A stretch of 64,000 bases of DNA, taken from NCBI GenBank assembly GCA_034530615.2, contig JAVRCV020000008.1, forward strand, positions 1 to 64,000. The letters are read 5' to 3'. The notes under the pieces were generated by a model, which saw only the letters and a program-made list of their open reading frames with translations, did not search any database and was not told the DNA's origin. Positions 25,138 to 34,748 of the stretch are shown here, piece after piece (within the stretch, counting starts at the first letter, position 1; each line of letters starts with the position of its first letter). This stretch comes from Aulosira sp. ZfuVER01 (GTDB lineage Bacteria > Cyanobacteriota > Cyanobacteriia > Cyanobacteriales > Nostocaceae). A program made the position numbers and the translations under genes.

Positions 25138-25692
25138 ATGGCTACTCTATTGCTTGACGACGGTACGATTGAGAGTGATTTAGGCGAGATAGTCCGTGAA
25201 TTGGCTCCTCTTGGCATCCACCTGAAACACTACGATCCGGGAACATCGCTGCTGTTCCCTCAGTTAGTCGAGCAAGAAGTTATCACCGAGTCTGAGAAGC
25301 GCTACATTTTAGAACTCCACAATGGTGTTTTTGAATTTCTCCAGCAAGAAACAGGCTATCTCTGGTGTGACTTGCTGAATGTGCATCCTGGTTCCCCTCA
25401 TCTACAAACTGCGATCGCCACTTACAGCCGTTATCATACTCATACTGCTGCCGAACCCATCTATGTTTTGGCAGGAGAGATGATTTTTGGCTTTGTAAAA
25501 CCCGATGGTAGTCAGATACAGCTTTTAGTTCAGGCTCAAGATTATCTCGTGATTCCGGCGGGAGTTGAACATTGGTGTAGTCCTAATGCATCTTTGAATT
25601 TCAAAGCAGTACGCTATTTCATCACCGCAGAAGGTTGGTTGCCTAACTACACAGGAACTCAGTTAATTGATTCTTTAAACAAGCAGCGCTAA
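25138..25692 (+). CDS. acireductone dioxygenase-like cupin
   Basis: HTH...E and IPAGVEHW metal ligands, AVRYF...GW. Confidence 0.75.
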   Translation: MATLLLDDGTIESDLGEIVRELAPLGIHLKHYDPGTSLLFPQLVEQEVITESEKRYILELHNGVFEFLQQETGYLWCDLLNVHPGSPHLQTAIATYSRYHTHTAAEPIYVLAGEMIFGFVKPDGSQIQLLVQAQDYLVIPAGVEHWCSPNASLNFKAVRYFITAEGWLPNYTGTQLIDSLNKQR

Positions 25693-25819: not shown

Positions 25820-26140
25820 TTAACGATTGGTAAATAGTAATAGAAAACAACTACCATTCAATAAAGCAGTAATCACTGCACCAATAATTACACCTTTCAT
25901 CATTGCCAAACGCTGTTGTTTTCTTAGCCAAATACAAAGAGGAATTACATATAACATTTGCCAGATGAAAAATCCCCAACCACCAATAATCCAAATACCT
26001 AAATAATTATAATTACTGTAACCAAAGATTAGTCCATAAATCCAGCCTAGCAAAAAGATTATTCCTATTGCTAGGAAATGCAACCCAAATAAAAGAAATA
26101 TCCCTAAAAAAATATTTAAAGTTTCATTTCTTTGAGACAT
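25820..26140 (-). CDS. small 3-TM membrane protein with C-terminal ..ALLNGSC
   Basis: 106 aa, AGGA RBS, 36 nt downstream of the radical SAM gene. Confidence 0.75.
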   Translation of the reverse strand: MSQRNETLNIFLGIFLLFGLHFLAIGIIFLLGWIYGLIFGYSNYNYLGIWIIGGWGFFIWQMLYVIPLCIWLRKQQRLAMMKGVIIGAVITALLNGSCFLLLFTNR

Positions 26141-26176
26141 TAATTTATTCCTGTAGATGACGCCGATAAATTATAT

Positions 26177-27595
26177 TCACGAGGGATGGTTATTTACTAG
26201 GTGATATCCAGCGCTGCCTTCGCGGTAAAACATATTGAAAGTATCAAATGGGATAATCCTACCATCTGGATGGACAATATGAATACAAGAGCGCTTCACT
26301 GAACGGACATCAAAGTTAAAAGGGTCGAGAAATTGTACAATCATCACCCGAAATATATTAGAGTAGTTAATTCCTTCGGGTACAGCTATCATTGGCAAAC
26401 AACACAAAAGCTGCTTGAGTGATAAAGCCGCAGAAGTTGGTGAATGACTTGTAGAAAATAATTGAAAAATTTGCTGCTTTAGTTCTTCATTTTGTTCATA
26501 AAGCACGCTGTTAGGCATAATTTTCACAAAAATATCTGGATTAATTAACCCAGTTAGAGGTATTACTTTGCCATTTAGTTTCAATGCATAAGCCATTGCT
26601 AAAGAATCAGGATGACAGGGAACTGGGAGAATATCTTCAGGTTTAAAATAAGGACTTTGTTCTAAAATTGAGCGTCGAACTTCTGTTAAGGTATATCTGT
26701 CTCGCTTGGGGTCAAATCCTGCTAATCTTCCGGCTGCTTGTATCGGTTGAAAAGTTACACCTCGGATACATTTTTGCTGTAAAGCATACTCGAGGATTTT
26801 GCCAATTTCGCGGTCATTTAACCCTTTTTTGAGGGTGACAACTAATGTAGTAGAAATATTATATTCGTTGAGATGGGCAATTGCTTGCTCGCGCACAGTC
26901 CGTAAATCTGCACCGCGTAACTCTTTTAAAGCGTCGGCTTCAAAGCTGTCAAATTGCAAATATACTTCAATTCCTGGCATATATTGGCTCAAGCGATCGC
27001 AAAAAGATTTATCCTTAGCGATCGTTACGCCATTAGTATTGATCATTAAATGCTTGATTGGCTTGCTTTTGACAATATCCAATATTTGAAAAAACTCAGG
27101 ATGAATGGTTGGTTCGCCACCGCTTAATTGCACTATCTGCGGTTCCCCTTCATTTGCTACTACCGCATCAATCATGCTTTCAATTTGTGCTAAACTGCGA
27201 TGCAGTCGTGGTTGATGGGATAACTGCGAAACTTCTTCCACGCCTGAATCCGCATAACATATTGGACAGGAAAGATTGCATTTGTCTGTGACTTCGATTA
27301 ATGTTAAACAGCTATGCTGTTCGTGATCGGGACAAAGTCCACAATCATAAGGACAACCATATTTAATTGGCGTATTAAACTTGAGGGGCATATCCCCTGG
27401 TTTAATGAATTCTAGAGACTTTTTATAAAATTCAATATCATCAGCTATTAAAACTTCTTCTCTCCCGTGAGTGGGACAGTGTTTAACTAAGTAAACACAA
27501 TCATCTTGAAAAATGATTTTGGCTTCTACTTTAACTAGACATTTTGAGCAAACACTATTAGTTAAAGCGTAAAATAAATAATTGCGGGTAGGCAT
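26177..27595 (-). CDS. radical SAM enzyme, Tes/MJ0619 (tetraether lipid synthase)-like
   Basis: CSKC...CPTHG, GCPYDCGLCPDH, CNLSCPIC, SGGEPT, NTNG, YLQFD, C-terminal SCIH..DGRIIPF; start set at MPTRNY because the upstream extension is STRR-derived. Confidence 0.85.
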   Translation of the reverse strand: MPTRNYLFYALTNSVCSKCLVKVEAKIIFQDDCVYLVKHCPTHGREEVLIADDIEFYKKSLEFIKPGDMPLKFNTPIKYGCPYDCGLCPDHEQHSCLTLIEVTDKCNLSCPICYADSGVEEVSQLSHQPRLHRSLAQIESMIDAVVANEGEPQIVQLSGGEPTIHPEFFQILDIVKSKPIKHLMINTNGVTIAKDKSFCDRLSQYMPGIEVYLQFDSFEADALKELRGADLRTVREQAIAHLNEYNISTTLVVTLKKGLNDREIGKILEYALQQKCIRGVTFQPIQAAGRLAGFDPKRDRYTLTEVRRSILEQSPYFKPEDILPVPCHPDSLAMAYALKLNGKVIPLTGLINPDIFVKIMPNSVLYEQNEELKQQIFQLFSTSHSPTSAALSLKQLLCCLPMIAVPEGINYSNIFRVMIVQFLDPFNFDVRSVKRSCIHIVHPDGRIIPFDTFNMFYREGSAGYHLVNNHPS

Positions 27596-27609
27596 GGTGA
27601 TGTTAAATA

Positions 27610-27642
27610 AGGCAGAGGGCAGAGGGCAGGAGGCAGAAGGGG
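27610..27642. repeat. heptamer STRR (GGCAGAG)
   Basis: aggcagagggcagagggcaggaggcagaaggg. Confidence 0.8.
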
Positions 27643-27735
27643 ATGGAAAGAAGTTTACAAGTTTTTTTAAGGTAGGCAATGCCAACTTATGGTTATTGAA
27701 AATACTGCAAAACGTCCGTCAAATTTAATTTAAAA

Positions 27736-28479
27736 TTAGTTGTTGAGTTGAAACATTTGGGGAATGCTGCGGCGGTAATACAAAATAGTTAATAGGCAAG
27801 CAACTTGAATCGCACTCAGCCCCAAGAATGGATGAAAATCGGGTTTAATGAAATCTACCAGAAAACGAAAACCAAGATAAGAAACTAAATAAAATTTAAA
27901 TAACTCGCCATTTTGATATTGGTAGCGACTACGAAATTGTAGAAACAGAGTTAGTAATACTAAAAATAAGATTTCATATAATTGAGTCGGATGGCGGGAA
28001 ATGCCATCGCCAAAATCTACACCCCAAGGTAAATTTGTAGCGATGCCGTAAGTGCGATCGCTCAACCCTGTAAGAAAGCAACCAATCCTTCCAATGGCTG
28101 TTCCCCAAATTAACGGGTAAACAAATACATCACCAGTAGATTGGTGAATATTAAGCAGTTTTTTGGTGGTTTCTACACCAATTAATCCACCCAAAAGCGC
28201 GCCTACAACTGTTTTTCCTTGCAGTAATAGTAATAATAATTGCTGTTGATTTTGCCAAAGTAAATCAATGTGTTGCAGCCAAACTAGCATTTTGGCACCA
28301 ATTAAAGCACCTACCATACCACCAACTATGACAGAACTACGTTGGCTAGGTGCAATAGAATCTTTGCGAAGATGGCGTAATAGTAAACGAAAGGCAGTGG
28401 CGTAAGCCAAAGACTCAAATAAAAGATGAGGGTGGATTTGGAAAGCACCCCAGCCAATGTAAACGGGGAAATTCAACAT
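27736..28479 (-). CDS. prolipoprotein diacylglyceryl transferase (Lgt)-family paralog
   Basis: GRIGCFLTG, LPWG, RHPTQLYE, RFLVDFIK; lacks the canonical N-terminal RWYG. Confidence 0.85.
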   Translation of the reverse strand: MLNFPVYIGWGAFQIHPHLLFESLAYATAFRLLLRHLRKDSIAPSQRSSVIVGGMVGALIGAKMLVWLQHIDLLWQNQQQLLLLLLQGKTVVGALLGGLIGVETTKKLLNIHQSTGDVFVYPLIWGTAIGRIGCFLTGLSDRTYGIATNLPWGVDFGDGISRHPTQLYEILFLVLLTLFLQFRSRYQYQNGELFKFYLVSYLGFRFLVDFIKPDFHPFLGLSAIQVACLLTILYYRRSIPQMFQLNN

Positions 28480-28491
28480 AATTCGTAATTA

Positions 28492-29289
28492 TCACTCAAT
28501 TTCCTCACAGCGAATCAATAATGTTTCCATTGCTTCTGCTAAAGAAATTAAGTCTATCCAAGAGGAACCACTGACTAGATTTTGCGCGTGAGCTAATCGG
28601 TTGCGTAGTTGTTCGGCAGATTTGAGAAAACGCTCTCCAAATCTTTTTGATTTTAGTCCAAGTTGTTCAAGAAGTTCTGGTTGATTTAAGACTAACTCTC
28701 GTTTATCGCAGAATTGGAGATAATCTAATAAATCTGTGGCTTCGTTTCTTTCTTGGCTTTCGCGCCATAGTCGTTGAGCAACTTGTAAACGTTCTGGTTT
28801 GAGGAATTTTTGCCAGGAATCTTGAGGATAGTAAAGCCGCACCAGTCGCAAGAGATTCATTTCTAGCAATGTAACTAAACCAAACAGCAACATTCGTGCA
28901 GGTGCTTTTTGCAAATCGCCACAGGTAATAATTCCAGTTACTTGATTGCAATCTAGGACAAATAATCGGGGAGTTTGTTGCAGAATGGGTAGCAATTTCA
29001 TCAGTGGAGTAGAAATGGCGATGAGTTCTTTGGGATGAAACACTCGCTGATAATCGCTGCACTTACCGGATGTGGCTTTGATTAAGCTAGCGCGTTCTAC
29101 ATAACCAGCAATCGTATCTCCCGACTCCACACCAACTACATCAAAATCCCGTGCTTGCATCCAATGCAGCACCTCTGTTACTTCTGCTTCCGCCGACACT
29201 GCTTTGAGGGGTTCTGCGACATATTCAATTGTGATGTTGTTCTCAAACAAACTCCGCAAATCTTGAGAACGTGATTTAAGGTGTTTCAT
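28492..29289 (-). CDS. CBS-like domain protein with C-terminal HEPN-like RxxxxH motif
   Basis: CBS-type segments (FDVVGV..IAGYV; LFVLD..VTGIITCGDL) and LRNRLAH. Confidence 0.65.
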   Translation of the reverse strand: MKHLKSRSQDLRSLFENNITIEYVAEPLKAVSAEAEVTEVLHWMQARDFDVVGVESGDTIAGYVERASLIKATSGKCSDYQRVFHPKELIAISTPLMKLLPILQQTPRLFVLDCNQVTGIITCGDLQKAPARMLLFGLVTLLEMNLLRLVRLYYPQDSWQKFLKPERLQVAQRLWRESQERNEATDLLDYLQFCDKRELVLNQPELLEQLGLKSKRFGERFLKSAEQLRNRLAHAQNLVSGSSWIDLISLAEAMETLLIRCEEIE

Positions 29290-29377: not shown

Positions 29378-29755
29378 TTAAGCAGGCATCATGTGCATTG
29401 AGCGGCAGGCTTCTGCACACTTGCGGCAAGCTGCGGCACATTCCATCATTTTAGAATCGCCACTCATTCCTTCACAAGCCATTGCACAGCGATCGCACAT
29501 TTCTGCACAAAGCATACAAGTGCGTCCCATGAACTCGGAACCACTCATCATCATGTTCATGCACATCATGCACATTTCAGAGCAGTCACGCATCATGCCC
29601 ATCATGCTCATCATGCTCATGTCCATCTGCTTGCCTTTAGACATAGACATACAGTGGGTCATGGCTTCCATGCACATTTTATGACATTCCATGCAAGCGT
29701 CCATGCAAGTTTGCATTTCGGTTGTCATGGATTCGTTCATCATCATCATCATCAT
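29378..29755 (-). CDS. four-helix-bundle copper storage protein (Csp3/DUF326-like), extremely Met-rich
   Basis: repeated CxxxCxxC pattern, 17 Cys and 40 Met; AGGAGG RBS. Confidence 0.85.
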   Translation of the reverse strand: MMMMMMNESMTTEMQTCMDACMECHKMCMEAMTHCMSMSKGKQMDMSMMSMMGMMRDCSEMCMMCMNMMMSGSEFMGRTCMLCAEMCDRCAMACEGMSGDSKMMECAAACRKCAEACRSMHMMPA

Positions 29756-30805: not shown

Positions 30806-30830
30806 CTTCTCGATCAATTTTTTGGATGCA

Positions 30831-33800
30831 ATGCCGCGAACTACATACGGTGCTGAACCTAAAAAGCGAGTCAAGCGTCTGTTAGAGACGTTGCTTTGTT
30901 TCGCGGCTGGAGAATTTGAGGATTATTTTGATATTCAATTTACCTGGCAAGAAGACGGTGAAAAGCCTAAGCTGAAAGTCGAGACAACTCTGGTGACTTT
31001 GGAGTTGCTTACACAAAAGGACAAACATCCTGGTAAGTTAACTAAACCGCAAATTCGCGAAGCGCTGAATTTACTCAAGGATTTTTTGAACATTCTCGAA
31101 GATAACCGTATTCAAACCCAAGGTTCTGAAGATTGGCGTTTTACGCTGACGCTATGGGCAAAGGATACGGAAATTAACCTAAAACAGGTTGATGAGGAAT
31201 GGGAAAATCAGAGACAAAAGAAATCTAAAAAACCACAGCCTAGCGTCAACAAAGTTGAGGAAGTTGACGCTACGAAAGCCGCTACTCGACCGCAAATCAC
31301 TATTTTTCAAGCTCCACCTTTACCTGTACACTTTGTAGAACGCCCAGAATACAGCGAAGATTTAAAGACTCGTCTGCTCAACGGTTCATCATCTGATAAC
31401 CGCACCTTGGTAATTACAGCGATTCACGGCTTAGGTTCGGTGGGCAAGTCTACCATAGCAGCAGCTTTAGCCCATGATGCAGAAGTACAAACTCGGTTTT
31501 GTGATGGCATTCTTTGGGCAACATTAGGTCAACAGCCTGATGTGCTTTCTTTACTTAGTGGCTGGGTGCAAGCGCTAGGAGACTATAGCTTTAAACCTAC
31601 CAGTGTCGAAGCCACTTCTACCCAATTGCGGACTCTGCTTTATGACAAAGCTGTACTGCTAGTGGTAGATGATGCATGGAATACCAAAGATGCACAAGCG
31701 TTTAATGTCGGTGGTGCGCGTTGTCAAGTTTTGGTAACTACCCGTGACGCTTCTATTGCCGATGCATTGGCAGCTAGCACCTACAGCCTGGATATAATGA
31801 CAGATGCCCAGGCAATGGAACTGCTGACGAAGAAATTAGGACGGGAGATTACAGGTACAGAACGTCAGTCAGCAGCAAAATTAGCCAAAGGTGTTGGTTA
31901 TCTACCCCTAGCATTAGAACTCGCCGCCGCCCAAGTTGCAACTGGTACAGCTTGGACAGTTCTTTTACAAGATATTCAACGAGAAATTGCCCGGTTAAAA
32001 ACATTTGACAGACCAGGCGCGAGAGATACCACTGATGAAGCTAGTTTAAAACGCCTCAGCTTAACGGCATCGTTGAATTTGAGTGTACAGCGATTGCCAG
32101 ATGAGGAAAGAGAATATTTTACTTGGCTGGGGGTGTTACCGGAAGATGCAACTATTAGCCCTAAAATGACCGCAACACTTTGGGATATGGCAGATGAGCG
32201 TGATGCTGCTGATGCATTGGAATATTTGCGAAGTAAAGCATTACTATTAACTGGTGTGACGCTAGCTGATCGGACGCTGACCTATCGCTTGCATGACTTA
32301 TTCCACGATTTAGCATGTAATTTGTTAACTGAGCCAAAAACACCTAAGCGTCGCGGTGATTTACCTGGACTAGGTATTTCCCTTGCCAATGCTCACGCTG
32401 CATTGTTGGAGAAATATCGGCAGAAAACCCAAAATAATTTATGGCACATCTTGCCTGATGATGGTTACATTCATCAGCATTTAGTATGGCATTTGGAGAA
32501 GGCGGGACGGTTTGAAGAGATTCATTCTTTGTTGCGGGAAGAGTCGGCAACTGGGGATAATGGCTGGTATGAAGTGCGGGAAAAGTTGGGGCAAACTGGG
32601 GGTTACATCACAGATATTTCTCGTGCTTGGGAATTAGCACAAGTAAATTGGACTGAATCAACTCTGCCGCAAGTGGTGGGTTTGCAGTGTCGCTATGCTT
32701 TGATTATGGCTTCTCTTAATAGTGTGGCAGCTAATATACCAGTGGAATTGCTAATGGCGTTGGTCAAAGAAAAGGTGTGGACTGCTGCACAAGGGCTAAC
32801 TTACGCACTGCAAAACCCGAATCAATATGAGAAAGCGACAGCCCTTGTAGAGCTGGTCAACTATTTGCCGCCAAATTTAAAAAAACTAGCACTTTCAGAA
32901 GCACTCATTGCCGCTAGAGCGATTGAGTCTGACAGAGATCGCGCCTTTACTTTAATAGCATTAGCCGAGCAACTACCAGAAGCATTGCCAGAAGCACTCA
33001 TCGCCGCTAGGGCAATTTGGGATGAGTGTTCTCGCGCCTATGCTTTGATAGCATTAACTGAGAAACTACCAGGGGTATTACTAGAAGCACTCAATGCCAC
33101 TAAGGCGATTCAGGATCAGTATGCTCGCCCCTATGTCCTCAGGGCATTAGCTGAGAAACTACCATCAGATTTGTTGCCAGAAGTACTCACTACTGCTAGG
33201 TCAATTCAGGATGAGTATTTTCGCGCCTCTGCCCTCAGCGCATTAGCCAAGAAACTACCAGAGGTATTGCCAGAAGCACTCACGGCCGCTAGGGCAATTC
33301 AGGATGAGTATTTTCGCGCCTCTGCCCTCAGCGCATTAGCCAAGAAACTACCAGAGGTATTGCCAGAAGCACTCACGGCCGCTAGGGCAATTCAGGATGA
33401 GTCTTCTCGCGCCTCTGCCCTCAGCGCATTAGCCAAGAAACTACCACCAAATTTGTTGCCAGAAGCACTTACTGCCGCTAGGGCAATTCAGAATGAGTCC
33501 TCTCGTGCCTCTGCCCTGAGCACATTAGCCGAGAAGCTACCAGAGATATTACCCGAAGCACTCACTGCCGCTAAGGCAATTCAGAATGAGTATTCTCGTG
33601 CCTCTGCCCTGAGCACATTAGCCGAGAAGCTACCACCAGATTTGTTGCCAGAAGCACTCACTGCCGCTAGGGCAATTCAGAATGAGTATTCTCGTGCCTC
33701 TGCCCTGAGCACATTAGCCGAGAAGCTACCACCAGATTTGTTGCCAGAAGCACTCACTGCCGCTAGGGCAATTCAGAATGAGTCCTCTCGCGCCTCTGCC

Positions 33801-34748
33801 CTCAGCGCATTAGCCGAGAAGCTACCAGAGTTGTTGCCAGAAGCACTTACTGCCGCCAGGGCAATTCAGGATGAGTCCTCTCGCGCCTCTGCCCTGAGAG
33901 TATTAGCTAATAAACTACTACCAGAGTTGTTGCCAGAAGCACTCACCGCGATTCAGGATGAGTATTCTCGTACCTCTGCCCTGAGCGCATTAGCCGAGAA
34001 GCTACCAGAGGTATTACCAGAAGCACTCACTGCTGCTAGGGCGATTCAGCCTCAGAGAGATCGCGCCTCTGCCCTGAGCGCATTAGCCGAAAAGCTACCA
34101 GAGGTATTACCAGAAGCACTCACTGCCGCTAGGGCAATTCAGGATGAGTCCTCTCGCGCCTCTGCCCTGAGCGCATTAACCGAAAAACTACCACCAGAGT
34201 TGTTGCCAGAAGCACTCACTGCTGCTAGGGCGATTCAGTCTCAGAGAGATCGCGCCTCTGCCCTGAGCGCATTAGCCGAGAAGTTACCAGAGGTATTGCC
34301 AGAAGCACTCACTGCCGCTAGGGCAATTCAGGATGAGTCCTCTCGCGCCTCTGCCCTGAGCGCATTAACCGAAAAACTACCACCAGAGTTGTTGCCAGAA
34401 GCACTCACTGCTGCTAGGGCGATTCAGTCTCAGAAAGATCGCGCCTCTGCCCTCAGTGCATTAGCCAATAAACTACCAGAAGTATTGCCAGAAGCACTCA
34501 CCGCGATTCAGGATGAGTATTCTCGTGTCTGTGCCCTCAAAGCATTAGCTATAGGTCTGTCAAAAATGCCATCTGTTACACTTTTCCCACTTTGGCGAGA
34601 TACACTTTATCAGCTATCCCTTCGCACTCGCCCTAATTTGCTGGCAGATATCAAGGCATTGTTTCCAGTTATCTTTGCATTAGGTGGTGAAGCAGCAACG
34701 GCAGAAGTTGCTCGTGCGATCGCAGATGTGGCGCGATGGTGGCGGTAA
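30831..34748 (+). CDS. NLR-like STAND NTPase: N-terminal domain, NB-ARC, APAF-1-type helical domain, tandem helical repeats
   Basis: FVER, Walker A GLGSVGKS, Walker B LLVVDDAW, VTTR, GYLPLAL, LHDL (MHD-like), YIHQHLVWHL; C-terminal 31/32-aa repeats. Confidence 0.92.
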   Translation: MPRTTYGAEPKKRVKRLLETLLCFAAGEFEDYFDIQFTWQEDGEKPKLKVETTLVTLELLTQKDKHPGKLTKPQIREALNLLKDFLNILEDNRIQTQGSEDWRFTLTLWAKDTEINLKQVDEEWENQRQKKSKKPQPSVNKVEEVDATKAATRPQITIFQAPPLPVHFVERPEYSEDLKTRLLNGSSSDNRTLVITAIHGLGSVGKSTIAAALAHDAEVQTRFCDGILWATLGQQPDVLSLLSGWVQALGDYSFKPTSVEATSTQLRTLLYDKAVLLVVDDAWNTKDAQAFNVGGARCQVLVTTRDASIADALAASTYSLDIMTDAQAMELLTKKLGREITGTERQSAAKLAKGVGYLPLALELAAAQVATGTAWTVLLQDIQREIARLKTFDRPGARDTTDEASLKRLSLTASLNLSVQRLPDEEREYFTWLGVLPEDATISPKMTATLWDMADERDAADALEYLRSKALLLTGVTLADRTLTYRLHDLFHDLACNLLTEPKTPKRRGDLPGLGISLANAHAALLEKYRQKTQNNLWHILPDDGYIHQHLVWHLEKAGRFEEIHSLLREESATGDNGWYEVREKLGQTGGYITDISRAWELAQVNWTESTLPQVVGLQCRYALIMASLNSVAANIPVELLMALVKEKVWTAAQGLTYALQNPNQYEKATALVELVNYLPPNLKKLALSEALIAARAIESDRDRAFTLIALAEQLPEALPEALIAARAIWDECSRAYALIALTEKLPGVLLEALNATKAIQDQYARPYVLRALAEKLPSDLLPEVLTTARSIQDEYFRASALSALAKKLPEVLPEALTAARAIQDEYFRASALSALAKKLPEVLPEALTAARAIQDESSRASALSALAKKLPPNLLPEALTAARAIQNESSRASALSTLAEKLPEILPEALTAAKAIQNEYSRASALSTLAEKLPPDLLPEALTAARAIQNEYSRASALSTLAEKLPPDLLPEALTAARAIQNESSRASALSALAEKLPELLPEALTAARAIQDESSRASALRVLANKLLPELLPEALTAIQDEYSRTSALSALAEKLPEVLPEALTAARAIQPQRDRASALSALAEKLPEVLPEALTAARAIQDESSRASALSALTEKLPPELLPEALTAARAIQSQRDRASALSALAEKLPEVLPEALTAARAIQDESSRASALSALTEKLPPELLPEALTAARAIQSQKDRASALSALANKLPEVLPEALTAIQDEYSRVCALKALAIGLSKMPSVTLFPLWRDTLYQLSLRTRPNLLADIKALFPVIFALGGEAATAEVARAIADVARWWR
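32897..34550 (+). repeat. 18 tandem 93/96-bp coding repeats
   Basis: unit EALTAARAIQxxxxRASALSALAEKLP(P)EVLP, nearly identical at DNA level; two units lack 9 bp. Confidence 0.95.

Follow-up and report, generated by a model that had tools for sequence, protein, structure and literature searches.

What would a paralog of the enzyme that lipidates bacterial lipoproteins, a radical S-adenosylmethionine (SAM) enzyme resembling an archaeal lipid synthase and a small membrane protein with a cysteine near its C-terminus be doing side by side in a cyanobacterium? The question is raised by a locus in the stretch of DNA analyzed here (the window), which comprises 64,000 nucleotides (positions 1 to 64,000, forward strand, of contig JAVRCV020000008.1, GenBank assembly GCA_034530615.2) from Aulosira sp. 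ZfuVER01, a member of the Nostocaceae. Lgt, the phosphatidylglycerol:prolipoprotein diacylglyceryl transferase, lipid-anchors bacterial proteins, and tetraether synthase (Tes) is an archaeal enzyme that joins lipid tails. A preliminary description of the window had proposed that the three genes form a pathway in which the small protein is lipidated and the acyl chains are then cross-linked or otherwise modified. Based on the comparisons of sequence and predicted structure presented below, we consider that the cassette is widespread and that it probably makes a lipid-modified membrane protein of a new kind.

Layout and conservation of the cassette

The three genes are co-directional, as had been described, and correspond to open reading frames (ORFs) on the minus strand at 28479..27736 (247 aa), 27685..26177 (502 aa, from a TTG codon) and 26140..25820 (106 aa). 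We refer to the product of the first as LgtL. Since homologs of the second align only from about residue 28-34 of the 502-aa ORF, translation most likely begins at the ATG at 27595; the resulting protein has 472 aa, and its residues are numbered here from that Met1. The gaps within the trio are 140 bp (LgtL/radical SAM gene) and 36 bp (radical SAM gene/small gene), and a convergent cupin gene (25138-25692, plus strand) bounds the cassette. The features of the trio, with the basis for each, are as follows.

27736..28479, minus strand: LgtL, a 247-aa Lgt paralog and 7-helix membrane protein (PF01790 match, AlphaFold2 model)
28075..28092, minus strand: GRIGCF, residues 130-135 of LgtL, the Lgt signature (translation and paralog alignment)
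26177..27595, minus strand: Tes/GDGT-MAS-like radical SAM enzyme, 472 aa (PF23545 and PF04055, 7TOL match)
27257..27280, minus strand: CNLSCPIC, with the cysteines of the radical SAM [4Fe-4S] cluster, C106/C110/C113, in a CX3CX2C motif (translation and family alignment)
25820..26140, minus strand: 106-aa membrane protein of about three helices (homologs directly downstream of the radical SAM gene)
25847..25849, minus strand: codon of Cys98, in ALLNGSC (translation and conservation in alignments)

In a sample of 301 genomes of Cyanobacteriota, searched at E<=1e-40 for the radical SAM gene and E<=1e-35 for LgtL, the former was present in 26, the latter in 24 and both in 23. G004 and G118 (the latter 66% complete) have the radical SAM gene without LgtL, G133 has a distant paralog only, and G242 has LgtL only, broken by a TAA stop. 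This last copy (G242:C3:3577151-3577888, from the same family as the source genome) has an internal stop and no radical SAM partner found in the genome, and looks like a decaying orphan. When 29 loci of the phylum were taken with 1.5-kb flanks, several of them cut by contig ends, an LgtL of the paralog type adjoined the radical SAM gene in 19 and an Lgt of canonical type did so in two. In these two loci, both from genus g91 (L029 3402-4274; L031 11-922), the canonical-type Lgt keeps FHGG, GRLGNF and GELWG and lies beside the radical SAM and Cys-tailed small genes; LgtL was found elsewhere in G028, one of the two genomes of this genus.

The cyanobacterial framing of the preliminary description turned out to be too narrow, as the cassette occurs in many bacterial phyla and in some archaeal metagenome-assembled genomes (MAGs). 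A scan of species representatives with the LgtL alignment gave at least 600 stretches, 597 of them confirmed, and the best 80 were analyzed, with labels taken from record titles. The bacteria among these 80 are labelled Cyanobacteriota, Acidobacteriota, Planctomycetota, Bacillota, Bacteroidota, Pseudomonadota, Verrucomicrobiota and Candidatus Eisenbacteria, and the archaeal MAGs Thalassarchaeaceae, Poseidoniaceae, Thermoplasmatota and Halobacteriales. LgtL is followed downstream, on its own strand, by a radical SAM match (50-92% identity) in 70 of these 80 loci, which span at least nine labelled phyla; a few of the 70 matches are cut by a contig end or split in two, and that of L043 is only a 52-residue remnant. 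Furthermore, the two genes are joined in one frame in Neobacillus (L108, 728 aa) and in a member of the Verrucomicrobiota (L097, 753 aa), and 44 of the 48 LgtL homologs longer than 433 aa in the protein collection carry PF01790, PF23545 and PF04055 together. A 701-aa ORF from Oleiagrimonas (L100) was rejected as a fusion, since it is a radical SAM frame that runs upstream over LgtL in another frame.

Conservation of the trio had been named beforehand as a point on which the proposal could fail, and in this neighbourhood survey the pair or the trio recurs across phyla. Because the arrangement recurs in this way and also as fusions, it is far beyond chance, and we are highly confident from adjacency, fusions and co-occurrence that the three genes act as one functional module, as far as genome comparison can indicate this.

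The Lgt paralog and the radical SAM enzyme

LgtL matches Pfam family PF01790 with 101.7 bits (cut-off 24.9; residues 5-233) and falls under the cut-offs of all six NCBIfam Lgt models (for example, 82.3 bits versus 334 for NF000778 and 52.9 versus 118.9 for TIGR00544). Given that a canonical Lgt (PF01790, 287 bits) is encoded on another contig of the same genome, LgtL is a second copy, and the earlier suggestion that it is not the housekeeping enzyme was right. The AlphaFold2 model of LgtL (predicted local distance difference test score (pLDDT) 79.9; predicted TM-score (pTM) 0.80) has E. coli Lgt (5azb) as its sole Foldseek match at E<=0.001 (E 1.6e-6, probability 1.00, query TM-score (TMq) 0.57).

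The residues of LgtL were read, in E. coli numbering, from an alignment of 12 paralogs with three canonical Lgts. A 13-residue motif has been put forward for Lgt (Y26, H103, G104, G142, R143, G145, N146, E151, G154, Y235, R239, E243 and R246; bioRxiv 10.1101/2025.03.27.645668). LgtL retains G142, R143 and G145 (within GRIGCF), Y235, R239 and H196-P-x-Q-L-Y-E, and in these residues, in its Pfam family and in its fold it is like E. coli Lgt (PDB 5AZB/5AZC). The altered residues are Y26H, H103V, N146C, E243D and R246K, and the E151-G154 stretch has become GLSDRTYG; the full 13-residue motif is not satisfied in the alignment with canonical Lgts. GRIGCF, at residue 130 of LgtL, keeps the Arg (E. 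coli R143) and has Cys134 in place of Asn146, where canonical Lgts have GR(L/W)GNF; RHPTQLYE follows at residue 162, and HPH stands where canonical Lgt has WYG. Y26H, H103V, N146C and the changes in the E151 region are common to all 12 aligned paralogs, and the positions invariant among them include C134, D141 and 46 others, G130, R131, G133, C134 and F135 of the signature each being kept in 12/12. LgtL also differs from Lgt in being shorter (247 aa), with a reduced periplasmic region, in its genetic tie to a radical SAM enzyme and in the occurrence of its family in archaeal MAGs, Lgt having been described as absent from archaea. Because the radical SAM domain is fused to it, the C-terminus of LgtL is presumably cytoplasmic. 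On the alignment and the predicted structure, LgtL is a distinct Lgt clade with the Lgt fold. One homolog of 439 aa (P0271), which shares 69% identity with LgtL, has a partial leucine carboxyl methyltransferase domain fused to it (PF04072, 31.8 bits), and this hints at CaaX-like processing of a C-terminal lipidated Cys; this is a single case and may be a gene-calling artefact.

There are already signs of such proteins in the literature. "More distantly related" Lgts with CD or CC at N146/E151 have been noted (bioRxiv 10.1101/2025.03.27.645668), and judging from our alignment these are the signature changes of LgtL. In M. smegmatis, MSMEG_5408 is reported to have Y26H and N146C, two of the signature changes, and resembles LgtL in these residues. 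It is non-essential according to a second preprint and is presumed weak or redundant. The accessible literature on MSMEG_5408 makes no link to a radical SAM enzyme, 'radical SAM' not itself having been searched there, and for MSMEG_5406, 5407, 5409 and 5410 only one unrelated zinc paper turned up. By analogy, LgtL could be an ordinary redundant second Lgt of low activity, next to a radical SAM gene and a hypothetical gene by chance. However, the same-strand adjacency in 70 of 80 loci, the 44 in-frame fusions and the 23 genomes with both genes exceed what chance would give, and we consider this explanation effectively refuted and extremely improbable.

The radical SAM protein carries an HMPTM-type zinc ribbon (PF23545) and a Radical_SAM domain (PF04055) according to Pfam, and all of the motifs named in the preliminary description, in this protein and in its neighbours, are present in the translations. 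Here they are CSKC (residue 16), CPTHG (40), GCPYDCGLC (80), CNLSCPIC (106) and YLQFD (212), followed by the C-terminal cysteine motifs PVPCHPD (324), LLCCLP (396) and RSCIH (435). The proposed Tes/MJ0619 architecture is likewise borne out. The sole close solved relative is 7TOL, which is GDGT-MAS, the Tes of M. jannaschii (MJ0619; phmmer E 6.3e-59), and the AlphaFold2 model (pLDDT 77.8, pTM 0.83, with low confidence at residues 364-408) matches 7TOM/7TOL from end to end (TMq 0.77, E 4.7e-33), the next match being a maturase of RiPPs (peptides made on the ribosome and modified after translation) at TMq 0.37. With this structural match, the three N-terminal metal sites and the YLQFD block, the enzyme has the same four domains as GDGT-MAS.

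The metal sites can be compared one by one. In GDGT-MAS, they are a rubredoxin-like site (C9X2C12X20C33X2H36), [Fe4S4]N on C73, C77, C80 and a His, the CX3CX2C radical SAM cluster and [Fe4S4]C with a labile Met439 (PMC9433317). The residues of the first three are conserved in the window enzyme as C16/C19/C40/H43, C81/C85/C88 with H91 and H94, and C106/C110/C113, CNLSCPIC aligning with CNLNCPIC of 7TOL, and the cysteines of all three sites are invariant in 79/79 family sequences. The C-terminal [4Fe-4S] site with Met439 was not found: in the phmmer alignment C438-M439 of MJ0619 is paired with Ile-Val, and SCM(439)HF, RCCIH and PFCT of MJ0619 stand against MIVQF, RSCIH and PFDT in the window enzyme. 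Unlike GDGT-MAS, the family has cysteines of its own in PVPC (C327) and CCLP (C398-C399), which are invariant, and in SCIH (C437), which is kept in 78/79.

In the HMM comparison with Tes that had been suggested as a check, the enzyme matched the family and remained under its cut-offs. The best-scoring NCBIfam model was TrsS (NF045646), with 306.7 bits (E 1.6e-91; cut-off 490) over positions 3-438 of 441, and Tes (NF045702) gave 269.8 bits (cut-off 450) over positions 2-313 of 486 only. Because TrsS aligns end to end, the C-terminal domain is nearer to TrsS than to Tes. Both models were matched by 23/23 diverse family members, with best E-values of 1.3e-100 and 3.6e-90, from which it would appear that no scanned member comes near either cut-off. 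TrsS is a radical SAM (seleno)protein; unlike it, the window enzyme has no selenocysteine, and a selenoprotein reading was rejected since the frame is open with no in-frame stop. The annotation of homologs as methanopterin methyltransferases was also rejected, this activity being uncorroborated for MJ0619 by Lloyd et al. (PMC9433317). Sequence comparison places the enzyme in the Tes superfamily, with what appears to be a rebuilt C-terminal, substrate-side domain, as the equivalog of neither Tes nor TrsS.

The window family also departs from GDGT-MAS in its hosts, many of which have no known tetraether or macrocyclic lipids, and in its partnership with LgtL (23/26 sampled genomes with the radical SAM gene). 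A further lipid-coupling enzyme, Mss of Thermotoga and Bacillota, likewise belongs to the radical SAM enzymes; it joins the tails of ester/ether lipids in bacteria and has, according to its authors, a Tes-like catalytic architecture (PMC13159169, bioRxiv 10.64898/2026.02.09.704826). We liken the window enzyme to it by description only; 'Lgt' and 'diacylglyceryl' have 0 occurrences in the accessible text of these two reports. We found no published description of the cassette in the literature, the paper that defines TrsS (credited to Haft and Tolstoy 2025 in PMC13188914) having been outside our search and possibly bearing on it.

The cysteine-tailed protein and its possible modification

The 106-aa protein belongs to no Pfam or NCBIfam family. 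A basic loop (RKQQRLAMMK) is followed by the last helix, GVIIGAVITALLNGSC98FLLLF, and then by TNR, and ALLNGSC, which the preliminary description had called reminiscent of a lipobox near the C-terminus, ends at Cys98, 8 residues short of the end. The position and geometry of this element stand. In 55 family ORFs (48 from an iterative profile, at least one of them, L092, a probable false positive, and 7 picked by eye), the last Lys/Arg precedes the Cys by a median of 15 residues and the tail beyond the Cys has a median length of 9, where the Cys scored is the first in the last 25 residues, a wrong pick in five rows with two cysteines. A basic loop, some 15 hydrophobic residues and a Cys resemble, on sequence, a lipoprotein signal peptide, in a C-terminal position and with a motif that is not a lipobox. 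By the positive-inside rule Cys98 would lie toward the outer leaflet.

Conservation of the Cys had been a second point of the preliminary description, and it is strong. G13 and C98 are the sole invariant positions in 26/26 homologs from Cyanobacteriota, Bacillota, Acidobacteriota and Pseudomonadota. When 1.84 billion cluster representatives were searched with a profile, 1602 passed E<=1e-3, of which 602 also passed E<=1e-10; the Cys98 column is Cys in 140 of the 150 best, with one Cys shifted by one residue and one row incomplete. The protein atlas gave only cyanobacterial clusters of hypothetical proteins, one of them auto-named 'Lipoprotein family protein', which we take as a lead and not as evidence.

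By tblastn, the small protein was found mainly in cyanobacteria and in two Bacillota, and by profile a small Cys-tailed ORF follows the radical SAM gene in 38/109 loci. Small ORFs missed by the profile were seen by eye in marine archaeal MAGs (L077, L102 and L114) and in Mucilaginibacter (L089, two copies), and the order in L072 is LgtL, small ORF, radical SAM gene. The small gene is often duplicated in tandem, as is typical for genes of substrates. The Cys-tailed proteins of two archaeal MAGs (L077 8305-8808 and 8821-9735; L102 8287-8805) have an N-terminal EF-hand (EF-hand_5, 26.7 and 31.7 bits, cut-off 25.9).

From these features we infer the substrates, the order of steps and the product as follows. 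LgtL, in the membrane, would bind a glycerophospholipid via two retained arginines, R131 (R143 in E. coli) and R205 (R239), the last helix of the small protein would enter the lateral cleft of LgtL, and a diacylglyceryl group would be moved to the thiol of Cys98 near the outer leaflet. The Tes-like enzyme, in the cytoplasm and held at the cytoplasmic C-terminus of LgtL (the two being one polypeptide in many species), would use 5'-deoxyadenosyl radicals and auxiliary clusters to make a C-C (or C-S) bond at unactivated tail carbons, as its homology to GDGT-MAS would predict, and the lipid on the protein would thereby be cross-linked internally or with a lipid from the other leaflet. The product would be a small integral membrane protein with a covalent, cross-linked lipid. 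That Cys98 is lipidated by LgtL and that the Tes-like enzyme then acts on the lipid tails by radical C-C (or C-S) chemistry is the possibility we favor, if tentatively and with something short of even confidence. In its most specific form, that of a post-translational modification new to both Bacteria and some Archaea in which LgtL thioether-links a glycerolipid to a near-C-terminal Cys and the Tes-like enzyme joins unactivated tail carbons by C-C bonds to give a macrocyclic or membrane-spanning lipid anchor, we regard it as rather doubtful.

A complex prediction for LgtL with the small protein scored 0.54, versus 0.00 for the best of 3 controls, and was judged to be weak support; partner pLDDT was at least 76 and contact agreement between runs at least 86%, and no interface was reported. 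In calibration, the mark was reached by 116/157 solved complexes and 2/215 mismatched pairs.

Lipidation followed by acyl cross-linking, as first proposed, is supported in part. It draws on the conservation of the trio and of the Cys, on the separate housekeeping Lgt, on the fusions and on this prediction, and of the refuting conditions set beforehand none that was checked spoke against it. Several observations weigh against it. First, Y26, H103 and N146 are reported to be essential in E. coli Lgt (bioRxiv 10.1101/2025.03.27.645668) and all three are missing in LgtL; for this reason LgtL is perhaps no diacylglyceryl transferase, and diacylglyceryl transfer may not occur at all. Second, the ligands of the C-terminal cluster differ from those of GDGT-MAS and the chemistry may, therefore, differ as well. 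Third, the lipobox part of the earlier claim does not stand: the strict motif [LVI][ASTVI][GAS]C is present in 2/55 ORFs, the window protein having N-G-S-C, the -1 residue is G/A/S in only 30/55, and the combination of an N-terminal signal peptide and a lipobox that marks lipoprotein precursors is absent from the small protein. Fourth, about 8 of the 150 best representatives are truly without the Cys, and G83 (150/150) is firmer than Cys98, with G13 at 141/150. Fifth, there is no nearby radical SAM gene at 10 of the 80 LgtL loci (L039, L041, L045, L050, L051, L055, L064, L068, L081 and L113), where the neighbours are unrelated; two of these, Nostoc sp. TH1S01 and LEGE 06077, have a radical SAM homolog elsewhere (P0036 and P0019). 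Sixth, several acidobacterial loci carry a 270-350-aa protein of about 7 helices instead of the small protein, and in loci where LgtL is unlinked (L029, L031 and L033) the small gene remains beside the radical SAM gene. Since it tracks the radical SAM gene, the small protein fits a partner of that enzyme at least as well as a substrate of LgtL. Finally, scores of 0.60 or less were given in calibration by 18 of the 157 solved complexes and by both mismatches, a band in which a pass would be wrong more often than right unless the pairing is already likely. The weightiest of these points are the three lost Lgt residues, the departure from a lipobox, the members without the Cys and the closer tie of the small gene to the radical SAM gene than to LgtL.

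The larger acidobacterial protein (L086 6796-7608, L078 6979-7923 and L112 7613-8671) lies between LgtL and the radical SAM gene, has no Pfam family and no obvious terminal Cys, and may be an alternative third component.

Some of these observations could also be explained by a pathway that acts on lipid alone, in which LgtL and the radical SAM enzyme remodel a glycerolipid and the small protein is an accessory or scaffold with a structural Cys. LgtL would extract or present the lipid, or transfer diacylglyceryl to an acceptor other than a protein; coupling or modification of the tails would fall to the radical SAM enzyme. The pair is more widespread than the recognisable small protein (38/109 loci by profile), G83 is kept better than the Cys, as helix packing would predict, and the ~7-helix protein takes the third place in some acidobacterial loci; moreover, GDGT-MAS needs no protein substrate (PMC9433317) and bacterial Tes homologs are already candidate synthases of membrane-spanning lipids (PMC8941075). 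However, it would have to be explained why a Cys in a membrane helix is kept at 93% across phyla, and tandem small genes with variable N-terminal extensions, such as the EF-hands of marine archaeal MAGs, are more substrate-like than subunit-like. The hosts also speak against this pathway, as many of them, cyanobacteria and Bacillaceae included, are not known to make membrane-spanning lipids. The same holds for Halobacteria hosts, in which no such lipids are known (PMC8941075). We consider a lipid-only pathway to be rather unlikely.

The constant position of the small gene, immediately beside the radical SAM gene even when LgtL is unlinked, is also what would be expected if the radical SAM enzyme modified the small protein directly, in the manner of a RiPP maturase, before the C-terminal helix inserts. 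A lipid tail or a residue could, for example, be joined to Cys98, or to the N-terminal helix around Gly13, with LgtL supplying or holding lipid or peptide and no classical diacylglyceryl transfer taking place. This would fit the loss of Lgt-activity residues in LgtL and the replacement of the GDGT-MAS ligands by the family's own C-terminal set (C327, C398, C399 and C437), and C-S chemistry is within reach of the family, given that a carbon-sulfur intermediate is formed on a cluster in GDGT-MAS (PMC9433317). On the other hand, the predicted orientation of Cys98 toward the outer leaflet would place it away from a cytoplasmic enzyme, and it is a lipid-tail enzyme that the predicted structure matches over its full length, RiPP maturases scoring far lower (TMq 0.37). 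We consider direct modification unlikely. With regard to lipidation by LgtL followed by radical chemistry on the tails, it is relevant that GDGT-MAS binds phospholipids, E. coli ester lipids among them (PMC9433317).

Phylogeny, neighbouring genes and significance

A quick maximum-likelihood tree was made from 56 rows, consisting of the window and those named loci (L038-L117) with ORFs of at least 430 aa; unnamed loci L010-L037 and shorter ORFs are left out of it. The root is unreliable, the outgroup being the longest ORFs of L118, L119 and L035, whose paralogy is unconfirmed, on branches of 3-10 substitutions/site. Phylum labels cluster in the tree, with 12 changes where 10 is the minimum. The window falls in a clade of 15 rows with 100% support, made up of 12 Cyanobacteriota, one "Actinomycetota" MAG contig and two unlabelled rows, and the marine archaeal rows are sister to Rhodanobacteraceae rows (support 97). 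Two placements stand out: the cassette of the "Actinomycetota" MAG (L054) is inside the cyanobacterial clade at ~85% identity, and the radical SAM gene of a Halobacteriales MAG (L071) is nested among Acidobacteriota. Either mis-binning or recent transfer would account for these, and the L054 contig is probably mis-binned.

The relation to true Tes is of wider interest. The LgtL-linked gene is the sole Tes-family match in the three archaeal MAGs searched (225-230 bits), and one Bryobacteraceae genome has both an LgtL-linked copy (224 bits) and a more Tes-like paralog (311 bits). In Zeng et al. 2022 (PMC8941075), 456 Tes homologs of bacteria were put forward as candidates for making glycerol dialkyl glycerol tetraethers of the branched type (brGDGTs), and Tes homologs were also described in 20 Halobacteria genomes that lack GDGTs, where their "function [is] unclear". 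Part of these bacterial and Halobacteria homologs may belong to the LgtL-linked clade.

Upstream of the cassette lies one further gene that could be transcribed with it.

28492..29289, minus strand: 265-aa gene with a weak CBS-domain match (PF00571, E 6.7e-4, under its cut-off)

This CBS-like gene ends 12 bp ahead of the LgtL start and is possibly co-transcribed with it. We rejected it as a fourth member, since it adjoins the cassette only in close relatives (L010 and L042); its product gave 28.9 bits with an anti-phage CBS model (cut-off 260). A terminator-like hairpin with a 17-bp stem (29340-29304) separates it from the next gene, and a promoter scan of the locus gave 6 promoter-like sites versus 11.6 in shuffled sequence. 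That next gene (29378-29755, minus strand) encodes a 125-aa protein that is extremely rich in Met and Cys, with the N-terminus MMMMMMNES, a weak DUF326 match (20.9 bits, cut-off 20.4) and 19.9 bits (cut-off 100) with the Csp1-type four-helix-bundle copper storage family. Further away, an ORF of 1308 aa (30822-34748, plus strand) has a P-loop-like GLGSVGKST in its N-terminal region, and the C-terminal two thirds of its translation consist of about 20 tandem units of ~29 residues resembling LPEALTAARAIQDESSRASALSALAEKLP.

The favored scheme is testable with one tagged 106-aa protein and a Cys-to-Ala control. If it were true, a function would be provided for the extra, "inactive-looking" Lgt that M. 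smegmatis and similar organisms have, and the presence of Tes homologs in organisms that make no tetraethers would be explained. A large share of the bacterial Tes homologs, and those of Halobacteria, would not be membrane-lipid synthases if the small protein carries such a lipid anchor. This matters for palaeoclimate research, where Tes homologs are used to infer the makers of brGDGT biomarkers. Because it is a separate paralog, as the Bryobacteraceae genome that holds both indicates, the presence of the LgtL-linked clade should not be taken to indicate membrane-spanning lipids. More broadly, if a membrane protein is lipidated and cross-linked by it, the cassette would add a new kind of protein lipidation and, to the tetraether-synthase superfamily, a new reaction, present even in oxygenic cyanobacteria.

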